A stretch of 59,299 nucleotides of DNA from Dehalococcoidia bacterium (GCA_034406555.1 DASCRM010000013.1:1-59299), one strand, 5' to 3'; shown: positions 887-20,587, counted from the first letter of the stretch. Notes: generated by a model from the letters alone, not told the origin. A program made the numbers and translations.

Positions 887-1000
887 ATGAAGGTGTCAGC
901 ATCGGTGAAGAAGCGTTGTGACAAGTGCCAGGTCATCAGGCGGCATGGCCGCGTGCGCGTGATCTGCGTCGTTCCGCGGCACAAGCAGCGGCAGGGCTAG
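887..1000 (+). CDS. rpmJ: 50S ribosomal protein L36, Zn-binding form (absent from ORF track)
   Basis: Manual translation [37 protein letters not shown]. Confidence 0.97.
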
Positions 1001-1009
1001 GAGGCTTAG

Positions 1010-1396
1010 ATGGCACGCATTTCAGGCGTCGACATCCCGGAAGACAAGCAGGTGCAGTTCTCGCTGCCCTACATCTACGGCATCGGTCGCAAGACCGCGA
1101 AGGCGATCCTGGCGCAGACGAACATCGAGCCGGAGCGGACGGTGCGCGACCTCACCGACGAAGAACTGGTGCGGTTGCGAGCGGTGGTCGACAACGAGCA
1201 CATGGTCGAGGGTGACCTCCGTCGCGACGTGCGGCAGAACATCCAGCGGCTGATTGAAATCAACTGCTACCGCGGCGCTAGACACCGTCGCGGGCTCCCG
1301 GTGCGCGGCCAGCGCACCAAGACGAACGGGCGCACCCGCCGCGGTGCGAAGCGTGTTGTCTCTGGGAACCGCAAGACCGCCGTGCGGAAGCACTAA
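1010..1396 (+). CDS. rpsM: 30S ribosomal protein S13
   Basis: [10 protein letters not shown]...IYGIG...[12 protein letters not shown]. Confidence 0.98.
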
Positions 1397-1416
1397 AGAA
1401 AGGCTGCTGACCGGCT

Positions 1417-1803
1417 ATGGGACGATCACGAACACGCAGACGGCGCGAGCGGAAGTCGATTCCGCGTGGCCGCGCCTACGTGAAATCGACGTTCAACAAT
1501 ACGATCGTCACGCTCACGGACCCAAACGGGAACGTGGTCGCGTGGGGGAGCGGTGGCACCGCCGGGTTCACCGGTTCGCGCAAAAGCACGCCCTACGCCG
1601 CCCAGCTTGCCGCGGAGACCGCAGCACAGACGGCGATGGAGAACGGTATGCGTGAGGTGGAAGTGCTGGTGAAGGGGCCCGGATCTGGCCGCGAGGCCGC
1701 GATCCGCGCACTGCAGGCTTCCGGCCTGCGCATCCTCTCGCTGCGTGACATCACACCCGTCCCGCACAACGGCTGCCGCGCTCGTCGCCGACCACGCAAC
1801 TAG
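1417..1803 (+). CDS. rpsK: 30S ribosomal protein S11
   Basis: [30 protein letters not shown]. Confidence 0.98.
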
Positions 1804-1837
1804 CAGCAACGATTCAAAGACAAGGCTCGAGGAACGA

Positions 1838-2446
1838 ATGGCCCGATACACCGGCCCCAAATGCCGCAAGTGCCGCCGATACGGCGTCTCGCTGTGTGGG
1901 AAAGCGCGCTGCGCGATTCTGCGCCGCCAGAACCCGCCCGGCCCGCGTCCGCTGCGTCGCCGCAAGGTCTCCGACCGCGGCCAGCAGTTGATCGAGAAGC
2001 AGAAGGTACGTTTCGCGTACGGGCTGATGGAGAAGCAGTTCCGCGGCTACTACGAGAAAGCGGCCCGCCGCTCAGGCGTCACCGGTGAGGAGCTGATGAG
2101 GCTGCTCGAGGAACGCCTCGACAACGTCGTCTTCCGCCTCGGCTTCGGCAGCACGCGCGCGCAGGCTCGACAGCTCGTGACGCACGGGCACATCGCCGTT
2201 AACGGCAGCAAGCTCAGCATCCCGAGCGCCCACGTGAAGGTGGGTGCGGAGATTGGATTCAGCGACAAGGGCAAGAAGTCCGAATACGTGAAGATTCTTG
2301 CCGAGGAGATCGGCGCTCGCGACACTCCGGGCTGGCTCGAGATCAACCGTGACTCGCTCACGGGCAAGATGATTGCTGAGCCCGGCGCAGGCGATTACGA
2401 GCCGCATTTCAACCCGAACGCAGTCGTGGAGCACTACTCGCGATAG
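1838..2446 (+). CDS. rpsD: 30S ribosomal protein S4 (four-Cys N-terminus)
   Basis: MARYTGPKCRKCRR, EKQKVRFAYG, LEERLDNVVFRLGF; start trimmed to ATG 1838. Confidence 0.97.
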   Translation: MARYTGPKCRKCRRYGVSLCGKARCAILRRQNPPGPRPLRRRKVSDRGQQLIEKQKVRFAYGLMEKQFRGYYEKAARRSGVTGEELMRLLEERLDNVVFRLGFGSTRAQARQLVTHGHIAVNGSKLSIPSAHVKVGAEIGFSDKGKKSEYVKILAEEIGARDTPGWLEINRDSLTGKMIAEPGAGDYEPHFNPNAVVEHYSR

Positions 2447-15294: not shown

Positions 15295-16068
15295 ATGCCT
15301 TCCGACTCTACCGATCCGCTGGCCGCCGTGGCCCCCTTCTACGATCTAGACCTCGACGGCTACGACGACGACATCGCGATGTACCGCGAATTGGTGAAGG
15401 AGCGCGGCACCGACGTCCTGGAACTGGGTTGCGGCACGGGCCGTGTCGTCGAACCACTGGCACGCGATGGCTGCGATGTCACCGCCGTCGACCTCAGCCC
15501 CGCGATGCTCGAGCGGGCGCAGCAGCGGACGGCGGAGTTCCCCGGCGACGGCTCCGTGGCGCTGATCGAGGGCGACATGCGGATCCTCGATGTCGGACGT
15601 CAATTTGACTGCGTCTTCATCCCGCTCGGTGGGTTGCAGCACATGGAGGAGGCGGCGGATGTCGCCGCGACGCTGGCCACGGTGGCCCGTCACCTCAAGC
15701 CGGACGGCCTCGCCGTCATCGATATCGAGGCCGCACATCCGAGTGACCTCACACCGGGGCCGCAGCCGCTGCTCCAGCACTGGACCCGCCCGAGCGGCAC
15801 GGCGGTCGTGACGAAGCTGGTGGCGGTCGATGGGGAGCCCTCGACGCTACTCAAGCACATCACCTGGCACTTCGACGTGCAACTGGAGGACGGGCCGCTG
15901 CGACGGGTCACCGCCGAGTTCCCGCTGCGCGTGATCACCGCCGGCGAGCTGGAGCTGGCGGCTCGCCTCGCGGGCCTGACGGTCACCGAGTGGCATGGTG
16001 GCTACGATGGCTTCCCGGCGGATGATGGTGACGACCGACTGGTGGTGCTGCTGGAGCACGCAGAGTGA
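15295..16068 (+). CDS. Class I SAM-dependent methyltransferase
   Basis: VLELGCGTGR, VDLSPAML, GDMR. Confidence 0.9.
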   Translation: MPSDSTDPLAAVAPFYDLDLDGYDDDIAMYRELVKERGTDVLELGCGTGRVVEPLARDGCDVTAVDLSPAMLERAQQRTAEFPGDGSVALIEGDMRILDVGRQFDCVFIPLGGLQHMEEAADVAATLATVARHLKPDGLAVIDIEAAHPSDLTPGPQPLLQHWTRPSGTAVVTKLVAVDGEPSTLLKHITWHFDVQLEDGPLRRVTAEFPLRVITAGELELAARLAGLTVTEWHGGYDGFPADDGDDRLVVLLEHAE

Positions 16069-17099
16069 GCATCACCGTTGCGCTCGACGCCATGGGTGGG
16101 GACTTGGCCCCGCAGGCCACGGTGGCCGGCGCGATCCGCGCCGCCGAGGCCGGGCACGAGGTTGCGCTCGTCGGCGACGAGGCGGTGCTGGCCGAGGAGC
16201 TTGCGAAGCACGAGATCGTGCCCTCCGGCGTCCGCATCGTGCACGCGCCGGACGTGATCGACATGCACGAACAACCCTCGCTCGCGACGGCGCGCCGCCG
16301 GGGCTCCTCGATCTACGTTGGCCTTGAACTGTTGAAGAACGGGGAGGCTGGGGCGTTCGTCTCCAACGGCAACACCGGGGCAGTGCTCGCGCTCTCGCTG
16401 CTCGTGATCGGCAAGTTGCCGGGCGTCGATCGCCCAGCGCTCGCTGCGTTGATCCCGCCTCGCACCGCCGGCCCCACGCTGCTGCTGGATGTGGGAGCGA
16501 ACGCGGAGTCGCGCCCGCTCCAGCTCGTGCAATGGGGGGCGATCGGCGCGGAGTACATGAAGGTCGCGTTCGGCGTCGCAAACCCGAAGGTGGGGTTGCT
16601 GAACATCGGTGAGGAACCCTCCAAGGGCTCGCCGTTGGTCGTGGAGGCGAACAAGGCGCTGTCGCAGATTCCGATCAACTTCATCGGCAACATCGAGGGC
16701 GGCGACATCGCCCGCCGCGAGATCGATGTGATCGTCACGGACGGGTTCACCGGCAACGTCGTGCTGAAGCTGATCGAGGGGATGGCGACGGCCATCCTCG
16801 GCAGCGTGCGCGATGCGGCGAGCGGATCGATGCGCGCGCGGCTCGGCGGGCTGCTACTGATGCCCGCGGTGCGCGACATCCGGCAGCGCTTCGATTATCG
16901 CCAGTACGGGGGCGCGCCGCTGATCGGTGTGAACGGCATGGTGCTCGTAGGGCACGGTCGCAGCGACGTTGTGGCTGTCGGGAATGCGATCGCCACAGCC
17001 GCGACGGCCGCAGAGCTCGGGGCGCTCGATGCCTTCGCGGCCGCGCTCGAGCGTAGTGGCGTGTCCCTGGGCGAGTCGTCCGAGGAAGGGTCGCGCTAG
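16065..17099 (+). CDS. plsX: Phosphate acyltransferase PlsX
   Basis: ALDAMGGDLAP, GNTGA, LDVGAN, NIGEEPSKG, DGFTGNV, HGRS. Confidence 0.96.
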   Translation: MSITVALDAMGGDLAPQATVAGAIRAAEAGHEVALVGDEAVLAEELAKHEIVPSGVRIVHAPDVIDMHEQPSLATARRRGSSIYVGLELLKNGEAGAFVSNGNTGAVLALSLLVIGKLPGVDRPALAALIPPRTAGPTLLLDVGANAESRPLQLVQWGAIGAEYMKVAFGVANPKVGLLNIGEEPSKGSPLVVEANKALSQIPINFIGNIEGGDIARREIDVIVTDGFTGNVVLKLIEGMATAILGSVRDAASGSMRARLGGLLLMPAVRDIRQRFDYRQYGGAPLIGVNGMVLVGHGRSDVVAVGNAIATAATAAELGALDAFAAALERSGVSLGESSEEGSR

Positions 17100-17437
17100 G
17101 CGGTCTCGACCGGTGCTGCCACCTCGCTCGCATCGTCGGTGGCACCGAGGCCACCGGAGGAGGGAGCGAATCGCCACCACAGGCGCATCGACTCGCGCAG
17201 CGCGTCGATCTGCTCTTCCGGAGTCTCGCTGCTCATCCCGATGCAATTGCCGAGGTGGCTGTCAAGGATCAGGCCGCCGACGTTGTCGATGCCGGAGCGC
17301 ACAGCCATCAACTGCGTGACGACGTCCTCGCAGGCGCGATCGCTGTCGAGCATCTTCGCGATGCCGCGGATCTGCCCCTCGATGCGGCTCAGGCGAGCCT
17401 GAAGCTTCTCTGGGCTCGTCTCTTGTGGCATGGTCAT
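17096..17437 (-). CDS. CsoR/RcnR-family metal/thiol-sensing repressor
   Basis: RLSRIEGQIRGIAKM..C.DVVTQL...HL..C (C-H-C fingerprint); start 17437 or 17431. Confidence 0.9.
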   Translation of the reverse strand: MTMPQETSPEKLQARLSRIEGQIRGIAKMLDSDRACEDVVTQLMAVRSGIDNVGGLILDSHLGNCIGMSSETPEEQIDALRESMRLWWRFAPSSGGLGATDDASEVAAPVETA

Positions 17438-17483
17438 CCCTCGTATCGCGGGAGCGGGGCGGATGCCCTGCTCGTTGGCGGTC

Positions 17484-17512
17484 TTGACATACCCCATGGG
17501 GGTATATAGAAT
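17484..17512 (+). promoter_or_regulatory. Sigma70-type promoter of trxA with CsoR-type operator in the spacer
   Basis: TTGACA-17 bp-TAGAAT; ATACCCCATGGGGGTAT pseudo-palindrome at 17489-17505. Confidence 0.8.
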
Positions 17513-17623
17513 GTAGTTAATTCGGCAGCTGTCTGTCAACCAACCACTGCGATCCGATCGGGCCGGTGGCGACAATCACAGGTAGACGCCCACAGGCAAC
17601 TGAGAGATCAGAAAGGAAGTGGC

Positions 17624-17947
17624 ATGAGCCACCCCACAGACACAACCGACACTACGTTCCAGACCGATGTGCTGGACAACGACACCCCCGTACTCGTTGA
17701 CTTCTGGGCCCCATGGTGTGGTCCCTGCCGCATGGTCGCTCCGATCGTGGAGGAGCTGGCGGAGGAGTACGAGGGCAAGGTGAAATTCGTGAAGCTGAAC
17801 ACGGACGACAACCCGCAGGTCGCCGGCAAGTACGGCATCCGCTCGATCCCCACGCTGCTCGTATTCAAGGGCGGTGAGCCGGTCTCGCAGATCGTCGGCT
17901 TCCGGCCGAAGAGCGACCTGGCGAAGCGGCTGGACGAGGCGCTCTAG
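17624..17947 (+). CDS. trxA: Thioredoxin
   Basis: [17 protein letters not shown]. Confidence 0.97.
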
Positions 17948-17972
17948 GGCGCCTCAACTGGCGGCGAGTACG

Positions 17973-18006
17973 AAACAGGCGGGCCGCATGCGGCCCGCCT
18001 GTTTTT
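17973..18006 (+). terminator. Intrinsic terminator after trxA (possibly bidirectional)
   Basis: Perfect palindrome AAACAGGCGGGCCGCATGCGGCCCGCCTGTTT then TT. Confidence 0.85.
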
Positions 18007-18060
18007 CTCAGTGCGGCTTCTCACTAAGCACGGGGGGTCGAGGTGTCCCGGATGGCCGGC

Positions 18061-18549
18061 TCAGTCGGACCCGTCGGTTGCCTCGTTCGCGCGGACGCCC
18101 TTGTGGATCGTGCGGCCCTGCTTCTCTTCGAGGCGGGTGAGCATTCTCCCCTTGTCGGGATGCGGGTCCTTCACGAGACCGTAAATCTCGCGCCCCTCAT
18201 GTCCCTCTGGCAGATGTTCTGTGATCGGAAGACCTTCCGACGCGACGAAGAGCAGTCAATGACAGTATTTCCAGCGCTGCATCTCCTCGCAGGCGCAGAT
18301 CCACTCCTTCTCGTCGACGGCGGCCTGCTTGTCGACGTAGAAGTTGCAGGGGCAGAGCGGGCGCTTCAGTTCATCGACGTGCTTGGCGAGGCCGATCACG
18401 AGGAACTCGGTGATCTCGCGCTGCGGGTGCAGGTAGGAGCCGCTCTTGCTGGCGAACGCCTCTACGTACTTCCACATCTTCGCCATCGACTTCGACGAGG
18501 CCTGAGCGCGGTCCTCGTCGCTCACATGGTCGAGACCGGGTTGGGTCAC
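18061..18549 (-). CDS. Ferredoxin:thioredoxin reductase catalytic subunit, predicted selenoprotein (TGA 18258-18256 = Sec), 162 aa
   Basis: LCPC...WICAC...YCH-TGA-LLFV matches FTR CPC/CPC/CHC; frame stays open for 64 codons to TGA at 18061; hairpin 15 nt after the TGA. Confidence 0.88.
18225..18258 (-). promoter_or_regulatory. Candidate bacterial SECIS element
   Basis: mRNA UGA-cugcucuucgucgcg-UCGGAA(GGUC)UUCCGA; apical loop starts with GG, 21 nt after UGA. Confidence 0.75.
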
Positions 18550-18633
18550 TCAGCTACTCCCTGGCTGGCGGCCGATCAGCGAAGCGGGCGATCCGCCCGT
18601 TTGCGAAGTGACAGCGTGGTTAATGATTCAGTC

Positions 18634-19179
18634 TTAGCCGATCGTAGCAGCGTCGCAAGTATGGCGGCGTGAGCGCCGACACGCGCCCGTCATGGCGGCG
18701 ACCCGAAACAATGCAACCCCATCGGCCAGCTCCTCGATGTGCGGGTTCAGCACGTCGACGGAACGAGGCGTAAAGGCGCGGTCGACGAGGCGGCGCAGGC
18801 GGTGGTGCTCCGGCAGGTCGAGCTGCAGGATGCTCGGCTCGCGGTCGCTCTGATCTTCCTCGTCGATGAGCAGGCCGGTTCGCCGGACATCACCCTCCGG
18901 GAGTTTGCGGCTGTCTCTGAAGACATCCTTGCTGCGCAGCACCTCGTTGACGTCGTCCCAGTGCGTCAGCACGACTTGGCGGCCGAAGTACGCATCGCGG
19001 TAGTGGATACGCCCGTCCTCGCGCATCGCGCGCAGCGCCGGGTGTGGGTCGGCGATGTAGTCGAGGTTGGTCGGGTCGTACTCCTGTGGGGCCTGTGGGA
19101 TGCCCGCAGTCTCTTCGGGCGTATCGCCTTGCGGTGTCTGGCGCTCTGTCGTGGTCACAGGTGGTTGCGATCCCCTCAC
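18634..19179 (-). pseudogene. Cytochrome P450 N-terminal fragment
   Basis: ADPHPALRAMRE, DDVNEVL, DLPEHHRLRRLVDRAFTPRSV; similarity ends ~18720 with no I-helix, ExxR or heme Cys. Confidence 0.75.
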
Positions 19180-19275
19180 ACTCGCGCCGGGCGGCGCGGG
19201 CGCATCGCTGATGCGGGAATGCTACGCGAAACCGCGCCGAATATGCACTCGATGGCGTGGTGAAATCGCTTCGCG

Positions 19276-19554
19276 TCAGCCTCCTGCGAGCTTTACGCGA
19301 TGGCCAGCGGACTCCAGAAGCTCCAACAACCGTTCCCGATGATCGCCCTGGATCACCAGCACCCGGTCCTGGCGTGTGCCACCGGTCCCCAACTGCCGCT
19401 TGCAGCGCTTCAGCAGCGCGTCGAGATCCGCCTCGCTGCCACTGAGGCCCACGACGAGCGTCCCGGGCTTCCCGCCGCGGGCGGAACTACCGCGATGGAG
19501 ACGCACGAAGCCATCGCCGGGGTCGGTTGGGAGGGGTTGTGAGCGTGCTGCCAT
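19276..19554 (-). CDS. yciH: SUI1/eIF1-like translation initiation factor
   Basis: RGGK..T.V.G, KR.LGTGGT, IQGDHRE, VKLAGG. Confidence 0.85.
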   Translation of the reverse strand: MAARSQPLPTDPGDGFVRLHRGSSARGGKPGTLVVGLSGSEADLDALLKRCKRQLGTGGTRQDRVLVIQGDHRERLLELLESAGHRVKLAGG

Positions 19555-19648
19555 GCCTCCGGATTCTCTCGAACGGGTCGGCTCGGTTCAAGGAACGGGT
19601 GGATGGGCGTGGGCTAGACGGCTCGAATCGAATCTAGCAGGCTGTCGT

Positions 19649-19745
19649 GGGAGTGGATGATGTCCGGTGGTGTCCGCGGTCTTCAAAACCGTTGTGGGGC
19701 TACGTCGTAGTCTTGGGTGGGTTCGACTCCCACGCACTCCCGCCA
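19649..19745 (+). tRNA. selC: tRNA-Sec (anticodon TCA)
   Basis: Acceptor GGGAGTG/CACTCCC + GCCA; 6-bp D-stem with CGGT loop; GCGGT-CTTCAAA-ACCGT; long variable arm; GTGGG-TTCGACT-CCCAC. Confidence 0.95.
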
Positions 19746-19786
19746 GTCGTGCTTGCGCCGCTGGCGCATTCGATCGGAGGCGCATC

Positions 19787-20587
19787 ATCGACCTGCAACT
19801 GAACGGCAAGACTGCGCTGGTGACCGGCGGCAGCCGCGGCATCGGCAAGGCGATTGCGCGCGAGCTGGCGCTTGAGGGCGTGGATGTGGCGATTGCCGCA
19901 CGCGACCGCGCGACGCTCGATGCGACTACCGAGGAGCTGAAGCACGAGACCGGCCGGAAGATCGTGCCGATCGAGGTCGATACCGGCAGCGACGAGTCGG
20001 TGCAGGCGATGGTCGCCGCGGCGCACTCCGAGTTCGGGCACATCGATATCCTCGTCAACAATGCGGCGAAGGCCGGCGGGCAGGGGCCGGTGCCCACGCT
20101 GCCGGAGATCACCGATGAGCACTTCTTCGACGACATGAACGTGAAGGTGCTGGGCTACCTGCGCTGCGCTCGCGAGGTCGCGCCGCTGATGCAGCAGCAG
20201 GGCTGGGGCCGGATCATCAACATCAGCGGGCTGGCGGCGCGGCAGGCGGGTTCCACGATCGGCAGCATGCGCAATGTCGCCGTCTCCGCGCTGACCAAGC
20301 ACCTCGCCGATGAGCTGGGGCCGAGCGGCATCAACGTCACAGTCGTCCACCCCGGCCTCACGCGCACGGAGAAGACCGCTGAGGTGGTCGCCGCACGCGC
20401 ATCGAACTCCGGGCAGTCCGCCGAGGAGGTCGAGGCGCAGATGGCGTCGGGCAACCTGGTGCGGCAGCTGATCGATGCCAGTGATATCGCGAACATCGTC
20501 GTCTTCCTCGCTTCGCCGAAGTCGGTCGCGATCAACGGCGATGCGATCGCGGCTGGGGGCGGCGTTGGCCGAGCGATCCACTACTAA
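19787..20587 (+). CDS. Short-chain dehydrogenase/reductase
   Basis: TGGSRGIG, DILVNNA, GRIINISG; apparent start is ATC after GGAGG (the ORF-track start lies inside tRNA-Sec). Confidence 0.9.
   Translation: MDLQLNGKTALVTGGSRGIGKAIARELALEGVDVAIAARDRATLDATTEELKHETGRKIVPIEVDTGSDESVQAMVAAAHSEFGHIDILVNNAAKAGGQGPVPTLPEITDEHFFDDMNVKVLGYLRCAREVAPLMQQQGWGRIINISGLAARQAGSTIGSMRNVAVSALTKHLADELGPSGINVTVVHPGLTRTEKTAEVVAARASNSGQSAEEVEAQMASGNLVRQLIDASDIANIVVFLASPKSVAINGDAIAAGGGVGRAIHY

Follow-up and report, generated by a model that had tools for sequence, protein, structure and literature searches.

We analysed a 59,299-nucleotide stretch of DNA (GCA_034406555.1 DASCRM010000013.1:1-59299, hereafter the window) from an uncultured Dehalococcoidia-class Chloroflexota bacterium of soil and water. 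In it, a gene for a predicted selenocysteine (Sec)-containing homologue of the catalytic subunit of ferredoxin-thioredoxin reductase (FTR) lies convergent to the thioredoxin (Trx) gene trxA and close to selC, the gene for tRNA-Sec. The host is a heterotroph and not a phototroph, and its genome has a GC content of 67%. The source assembly amounts to 2.35 Mb and is 82% complete, which bounds every genome-wide absence given below.

The locus begins with plsX (phosphate acyltransferase; 16065-17099, plus strand; PF02504, 319 bits), its conserved left border, followed by a gene for a CsoR/RcnR-family repressor paralogue of 113 amino acids (17096-17437, minus strand; PF02583, E 3.8e-24, 85 bits). 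Overlapping divergent sigma-70-like promoters for trxA and csoR (17484-17539, both strands; two sites against 0.2 expected) come next, and a predicted operator palindrome of 17 bp, ATACCCCATGGGGGTAT (ATACCCC-ATG-GGGGTAT; 17489-17505), occupies the spacer of the trxA promoter. The trxA gene (17624-17947, plus strand) encodes a canonical WCGPC thioredoxin of 107 amino acids (PF00085, 119 bits; TIGR01068, 136 bits). Between trxA and the convergent FTR gene lies a shared terminator-like hairpin (17972-18005; -42.5 kcal/mol, z -5.75), as stable as which none of 200 shuffles was; its minus-strand z is -5.0 and its U-run is on the trxA strand, the putative terminator as a whole spanning 17972-18009. 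The FTR gene (18061-18549, minus strand; PF02943, E 4e-19) encodes 162 amino acids. The selC gene, with anticodon TCA, lies 1.1 kb from it (19649-19745, plus strand; found by ARAGORN; Rfam RF01852, 69 bits). An earlier note, made from the sequence of the window, had proposed a CsoR-like repressor, its operator, trxA, a convergent Sec-FTR with a terminator-like palindrome between the two, yciH and selC, and each was recovered in place or close by. The same note had remarked on the lack of a gene for ferredoxin or for the FTR variable subunit: we found no ferredoxin gene in the span and no match to the variable subunit (PF02941) in the assembly. In oxygenic phototrophs FTR is a heterodimer of the catalytic and the variable subunit; according to a review, the latter is exclusive to these organisms.

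The FTR homologue scored 69 bits against PF02943 (cut-off 22), or 62.9 bits in a whole-genome search, and aligned without gaps to the structures 7bzk, 1dj7 and 2puk (E about 1e-19). Its likeness to the classical catalytic subunit (1dj7, 2puk, 2pu9, 7bzk) covers residues 15-104, six Cys positions and the His of the CHC motif; unlike the classical enzyme, it has Sec as the last redox residue, a conserved C-terminal extension of 60 residues and a host that is not a phototroph. The Sec residue is predicted from a single in-frame TGA (18256-18258, minus strand). Read as U, this codon gives an open frame of 162 residues with the motif CPC-x16-CAC-x8-CH-U (C66-P-C68, C85-A-C87, C96-H-U98). The CPC-x16-C(P/A)C-x8-CHC spacing, which sets out four cluster ligands and the redox pair, is exact, with U in the final position. 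In the gapless alignment U98 is placed opposite the final Cys of CHC, which is position 87 in the 1dj7 chain.

Several observations bear on how this TGA is read. The same codon is TGA in 27 of 30 loci in related genomes. In a wider sample, made of the best 80 FTR loci of a species-level genome collection, it is TGA in 68 (Sec loci), TGC or TGT in 11 (Cys loci) and unreadable in one. The 64 codons past the TGA are highly conserved at the protein level across the TGA-bearing loci, and the stretch that they encode, LLFV..EGLPITEHLPEGHEGREIYG..DPHPDKGR, agrees with Cys-type homologues of 62-76% overall identity. These homologues are full-length, have Cys at the position of U98 and are almost identical over the next 40 residues. 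The machinery for Sec incorporation is also present, selA (529 bits), selB (304 bits) and selD (360 bits) in the assembly and selC in the window. These results indicate, as judged from sequence, that the TGA at 18256-18258 truly encodes Sec, in the redox-active site of the FTR homologue. The three closest database proteins (87-95% identity) all end at 97 amino acids, right before the TGA; public gene calls thus cut the Sec-FTR at 97 residues, and the family is systematically mis-annotated.

In bacteria, a Sec insertion sequence (SECIS) is a hairpin at short spacing after the UGA, with G or U in its apical loop. The hairpin of the window, GUCGGAA-GGUC-UUCCGAU (18224-18241, minus strand), fits this description: it starts 14 nt past the UGA, with GGUC as its loop. 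The core, GGAAGGUCUUCC, stays fixed at synonymous sites and was found in 67 of the 68 Sec loci of the wider sample against one of the 11 Cys loci. Under a bulged-stem model, 89% of cells were paired and three pairs showed compensatory changes. The covariation score of this model was 0.187 against 0.074 in shuffles, none of which reached it in 500, and it stood above every slid control. The unbulged register, which is the one used by the window itself, suits only a minority of sequences. When the 73 nt past the UGA were folded as a single sequence, they were no stabler than shuffles (z -0.5), so that it is conservation and covariation, and not energy, that make the case for a SECIS. RNAalifold, run on 30 Sec loci, chose another, long-range structure, which did not covary and was dropped for the local hairpin. 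We take the GGUC-loop hairpin to be the SECIS-type element of the Sec-FTR gene, on the strength of this comparative evidence. The selD gene (contig C67, about 932-1870, plus strand) itself encodes a selenoprotein, with an in-frame TGA at 962 in the motif SCAG-U-AGK; a hairpin, GGGUC-UCGG-GACCC, lies about 13 nt past this TGA, a spacing similar to that of the FTR hairpin.

A quick tree placed 86 Sec rows together with one Cys row in a single group (SH-aLRT, an approximate likelihood ratio test, 94). This Cys row, L190, is a Cys-type (TGC) FTR nested in the Sec clade which retains the hairpin core GGAAGGTCTTCC, and it looks like a recent Sec-to-Cys reversion. A Sec-FTR on contig C79 of genome G021 (L042/L144) falls among the Cys rows; it has no trxA neighbour and carries another hairpin, GAUGG-CGUGC-CCAUC, and L042 may represent a second origin of Sec. 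Both the single origin of Sec and the L042 exception are provisional readings, because the tree is a quick one only.

As a protein type, Sec-FTR is already known, contrary to the earlier note, which had put the module forward as its best candidate for an undescribed system. Sec-containing FTR homologues were reported in 2008 from two reads of the Global Ocean Sampling (GOS) metagenome, one of them with two Sec (PMC2398784), and reviews of 2022 and 2026 list a 'Ferredoxin-thioredoxin reductase, CxU' (PMC9312934, PMC13188914). In the accessible text of these three sources, the treatment of Sec-FTR is sequence-only and its gene context is not mentioned. The window's protein resembles the GOS proteins in its FTR fold, in Sec at a redox Cys and in a bacterial SECIS, and CxU corresponds to the CHU of the window (PMC2398784). 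It differs from them in that, in one family, Sec-FTR is embedded in a trxA locus beside selC; the GOS report, again in its accessible text, gives no genomic context, whereas here the single-Sec form dominates a large Dehalococcoidia clade (68 of the 80 loci). The double-Sec form has an NCBIfam model of its own, NF041072 (FtrB double-selenoprotein), against which the window's FTR scored 33.6 bits (cut-off 160). The two share a superfamily and Sec at the CH[C/U] position, but the window's FTR has one Sec and not two, because its CPC motif keeps Cys. Our literature search returned no account of a conserved trxA-locus placement beside selC, of alternation with trxB or of a CsoR-paralogue regulon of trxA and nifS. 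The new detail is thus the placement in a trxA locus and the regulatory wiring.

Two other enzymes invite comparison. The ferredoxin:disulfide reductase (FDR) of Methanosarcina acetivorans (4tpu) likewise resembles FTR, is encoded by one gene in an organism that is not a phototroph, and lacks a variable subunit; the window's FTR matched it weakly (E 1e-5), the match extending into the C-terminal region. FDR, however, has a rubredoxin domain and all-Cys chemistry, whereas the window's FTR, in which Pfam reports only PF02943, has no such domain. Animal thioredoxin reductase (TrxR) also performs selenium-dependent Trx reduction, through a selenenylsulfide. It is an unrelated NADPH flavoprotein with Sec in a C-terminal GCUG tail, and its likeness to Sec-FTR is one of analogy only.

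The neighbourhood of the gene was compared over about 7 kb on either side of 36 FTR homologues of relatives (29 Sec-FTR, five Cys-type and two unclassified), scored with the window's proteins and ARAGORN; the neighbour counts are minima, because some loci end at contig edges. The csoR-trxA-FTR-selC order on which the earlier note had built its module does recur in relatives, in the form plsX-csoR-trxA-FTR-(selC). A convergent, adjacent trxA was present at 25 of the 29 Sec-FTR loci and an adjacent plsX also at 25, csoR was present at 20, and selC lay within 7 kb of FTR at 16, directly upstream (about +525 to +625) at 10. A trxB gene, scoring at or near the TIGR01292 cut-off, stood directly upstream of FTR and divergent from it at 10 of the 29, among them both same-genus genomes that have the locus (G001 and G003). 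None of these five neighbours (trxA, plsX, csoR, selC, trxB) was found at the five Cys-type or the two unclassified loci. The conserved unit is therefore a full thioredoxin-system locus and not the pure ferredoxin circuit that the earlier note had pictured, since trxB is an NADPH-type reductase.

Other features of the locus are not conserved. A yciH/SUI1-family gene (19276-19554, minus strand; PF01253, 46.7 bits), which had been counted in the proposed module, was found at none of the 36 relatives' loci and is not part of the conserved cluster. The same count of zero applies to a feature that the earlier note had not listed, a truncated N-terminal remnant of a cytochrome P450 gene, of about 165 residues (18634-19179, minus strand), which has no Pfam match and is assigned from weak NCBIfam P450 matches and from tblastn to annotated P450 genes (30-34% identity over about 85% of the open reading frame). 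This remnant stops about 85 nt before the FTR start and fills the slot that holds trxB in G001 and G003, a sign that this part of the locus has undergone a deletion or rearrangement. It does not match the genes that lie between FTR and selC in G003, namely trxB and genes for an MFS transporter, ChsH2-like, thiolase-like, SocA-like and PAS proteins. Beyond the cluster, a short-chain dehydrogenase reading frame (19667-20587, plus strand), listed from its first GTG, overlaps selC, so that its real start must be downstream of 19745; the tblastn 'matches' that relatives give to its first 27 residues fall on the tRNA-Sec gene itself.

The palindrome lies between the TTGACA -35 and TAGAAT -10 elements of the trxA promoter, on the plus strand, and overlaps the divergent csoR promoter-like site (TTGACA-17-TAGAAT for trxA, TTGACA-18-TACATT for csoR). 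The exact sequence occurs once in the 2.35-Mb assembly, and a reversed control pattern does not occur. In relatives it takes the form ATACCCC-N3-GGGGTAT, with invariant arms and a variable central 3 nt. A regular-expression search found this box upstream of trxA at 14 of the 20 csoR-bearing loci and a genome-wide pattern search at three more (G008, G014, and, with one mismatch, G015), giving at least 17 of 20, whereas none of five loci without csoR had it. We take the trxA operator to resemble CsoR boxes of the TACCCC..GGGGTA type. A gene for a nifS-like cysteine desulfurase (434 bits against TIGR03402, short of the model's cut-off) also has a box, with one mismatch, 15-31 nt upstream of it (contig C17:53232-53248, or 1501-1517 of L085), and a box adjoins the orthologue of this gene in five relatives (G001, G003, G009, G016, G019). 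No copper gene of the assembly carries the box. We conclude that the CsoR paralogue very likely represses trxA and itself.

The earlier note's idea of a regulated circuit stands for one half of the locus. The operator over the trxA promoter is conserved; the FTR upstream regions share a promoter-like CTTGCG...GAGACT pattern, and neither the genome pattern search nor these regions revealed an operator upstream of FTR. With its own promoter and no operator, FTR falls outside the control, and only trxA, and probably csoR itself, would be gated.

As to what the repressor senses, a different explanation of the regulation has to be weighed: that the locus is a copper-stress module in which the CsoR paralogue serves as a plain Cu(I) sensor, thioredoxin and cysteine desulfurase being raised when copper damages thiols and Fe-S clusters, and the Sec-FTR being incidental to the regulation. 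The paralogue shares with known CsoR-family proteins (4m1p, 4adz, 2hh7, 7mq1, 5fmn) the PF02583 fold, the Cys/His/Cys positions of Cu(I)-CsoR and a GC-rich palindrome over a promoter. The ligand set Cys36/His61/Cys65 is retained in 19 of 20 relatives, and the best NCBIfam match is RicR (63.7 bits, below cut-off), both of which speak for copper, as does the likeness of the operator to CsoR boxes. The orthologue that lacks the set (L054, genome G034, contig C7; Ser36, Tyr61) is at a locus where trxA lies 3.8 kb from FTR. Unlike known CsoRs, however, the paralogue would control trxA and a nifS-like gene and not a copper exporter, has no copper gene at its locus, has an extra C-terminal tail (WWRFAP...GG), and lacks the Tyr before the first Cys, which we take to be a second-shell residue of Cu(I)-sensing CsoR. 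Another CsoR of the genome looks canonical (87 amino acids; Tyr-Cys, His, Cys), and its gene is directly followed by that of a CopA-type P-type ATPase containing an HMA domain (contig C90, 1835-4510 of L093, minus strand). This copA-linked copy has the Tyr, against Ala at residue 35 of the trxA-linked one, and the lack of the box at copper genes again argues against a copper module. The nearest structures by sequence are InrS (5fmn), a persulfide sensor deposited as 7mq1, and CsoR, with similar scores, 7mq1 and InrS scoring equal to or above the true CsoRs. A copper-stress module is thus possible and, in our judgement, unlikely.

Our preferred reading, to which we give a probability of roughly 0.62, is that of a thioredoxin-system locus in which a CsoR-gated trxA is accompanied by a single-subunit Sec-FTR that would reduce TrxA with ferredoxin electrons; the analysis establishes the gene identities, the Sec codon, the hairpin, the operator and the conserved synteny, while we infer the donor, the substrate, the repression and the nature of the effector. 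The CsoR paralogue, bound to the palindrome, would hold down trxA and its own gene and would come off the DNA once its Cys36/His61/Cys65 site has been filled or modified, Cu(I) or thiol-reactive species being the candidate effectors. The UGA would be decoded by SelB and tRNA-Sec by means of the GGUC-loop hairpin, to give a single-subunit [4Fe-4S] ferredoxin:thioredoxin reductase expressed from its own promoter. Reduced ferredoxin could come from 2-oxoacid:ferredoxin oxidoreductases, for which the assembly has nine POR_N matches above cut-off, or from a TrxR-type ferredoxin-NADP reductase (FNR); a small Fer4_15 ferredoxin and a fragment of such a reductase are present in the assembly.

Ferredoxin would then hand two successive electrons to the cluster. 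In classical FTR we take Cys87, of the CHC motif, to be the iron-binding residue and Cys57 the one that attacks Trx, roles that were reportedly established by Dai et al. in 2000 and 2007. Sec98 aligns with the second residue of the classical CHC pair, the cysteine that in the classical enzyme takes part in the active-site disulfide and, in the one-electron intermediate, serves as a fifth ligand to an iron of the cluster. In the proposed cycle, a Cys68-Sec98 selenenylsulfide would open upon one-electron reduction, Cys68 would attack oxidised TrxA to form a mixed disulfide, and Sec98 would bind the cluster iron transiently until the second electron arrives. This follows the classical scheme as set out in PMC3838966: after reduction of the cluster by ferredoxin, Trx is attacked by one of the two active-site sulfurs, while its partner serves as a fifth ligand of a cluster iron.

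The position of the Sec-FTR as a thioredoxin reductase depends in part on the competing enzyme. No ortholog of canonical trxB was found in the assembly, although, as noted above, the NADPH-dependent gene stands beside FTR at 10 of the 29 relatives' loci; the earlier note had asked for trxB elsewhere in the genome, and the best match (35-38% identity) is the FNR fragment, an N-terminal piece of 207 residues at a contig end (C34:2-622, minus strand; 208 bits to 3lzw) without a CxxC motif. With trxB absent from both the locus and the assembly, Trx in this organism may be reduced largely or wholly by Sec-FTR. We searched 24 genomes of the family for both genes. The four without an FTR match that have any TrxB (G002, G018, G020, G022) scored at least 335 bits for TrxB; of the four without a strong TrxB match, three (G004, G006, G011) have Sec-FTR.

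A rival reading on the side of the enzyme takes the Sec-FTR for a ferredoxin:disulfide reductase with a physiological substrate other than TrxA, which could be a different redoxin, a disulfide or persulfide of low molecular weight, or a selenium species. The adjacency of trxA would then reflect insertion into an older csoR-trxA-trxB locus, perhaps next to selC, and not a partnership in function. A number of observations weigh in this direction and so against TrxA as the substrate. In five genomes (G005, G021, G020, G042, G046) the arrangement plsX-csoR-box-trxA-trxB occurs without FTR at the locus, which suggests that the older unit is a repressor-gated trxA-trxB pair; the family's Sec-FTR sits between the two genes of that pair and may be no more than an insertion into a locus that was already there. 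The linkage on which the earlier note relied, kept in the family, fades at a distance: only 21 of the 68 Sec-FTR loci of the wider sample have trxA within 3 kb. Among the 47 others, a gene for a PAC2-family protein lies upstream on the same strand in about 25, genes for an ABC-transporter binding protein and permease occur downstream, and a CMD-family (AhpD-like) gene is present in about 15; no ferredoxin or redoxin was seen among these neighbours. The trxA and FTR genes are convergent and not co-transcribed, and FTR, read from the other strand under a promoter of its own, escapes the operator. The archaeal FDR, according to PMC6262447, reduces a non-canonical Trx and not those with WCGPC, so that the substrate cannot safely be read off from homology. 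Finally, one family genome (G024, 91% complete) has neither reductase in its assembly, and since our own assembly is 82% complete, the alternation between TrxB and Sec-FTR across family genomes is suggestive only.

On the other side, trxA is convergent and adjacent at 25 of 29 family loci in spite of rearrangements past the other end of FTR, where trxB, selC and other genes come and go, and no Cys-type paralogue has trxA next to it. The identity to Trx-reducing FTRs spans the whole catalytic core, and of the four family genomes that lack a strong match to TrxB, three carry Sec-FTR. We therefore consider a substrate other than TrxA doubtful, slightly more so than the copper-stress module. That the TGA is instead a true stop, or the mark of a decaying gene, the product then being a mere 97 residues long and without the last redox residue, is highly improbable: gene callers do stop at the TGA and entries of 97 amino acids exist, but the protein-level conservation of the 64 codons beyond it at loci with the same TGA (27 of 30 and 68 of 80), the covariation of the hairpin and the complete Sec machinery all argue against it.

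A bolder version of the thioredoxin-system reading can also be put forward, as a speculation which we hold less probable than either the copper module or the non-TrxA substrate. In it, Sec-FTR would be the sole thioredoxin reductase of the lineage, and the CsoR paralogue a sensor not of copper but of thiol, persulfide or selenium stress that co-regulates trxA and a NifS-like desulfurase or selenocysteine lyase. If this were true, the whole thioredoxin system would depend on selenium and reduced ferredoxin, as a bacterial Fe-S counterpart of animal TrxR; a transient Fe-Se bond would occur in the catalytic cycle; and selenium supply, Fe-S repair and thiol reduction would be joined in one regulon with its anchor beside selC.

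Disulfide cleavage by an Fe-S cluster has its textbook example in FTR, and Sec at a cluster-binding position would permit the study of a selenenylsulfide and Fe-Se version of its chemistry. The clade offers hundreds of natural Sec/Cys pairs for this, including the apparent L190 reversion, with its retained hairpin, and the possible second origin at L042. The CsoR paralogue, with its predicted regulon of trxA and nifS, is a candidate for a new specificity in a well-studied family of sensors. For the organisms themselves, the locus hints at the way in which aerobic Dehalococcoidia, abundant but uncultured, maintain thioredoxin in its reduced state: low-potential electrons from the oxidation of 2-oxoacids would serve in place of NADPH, or besides it.

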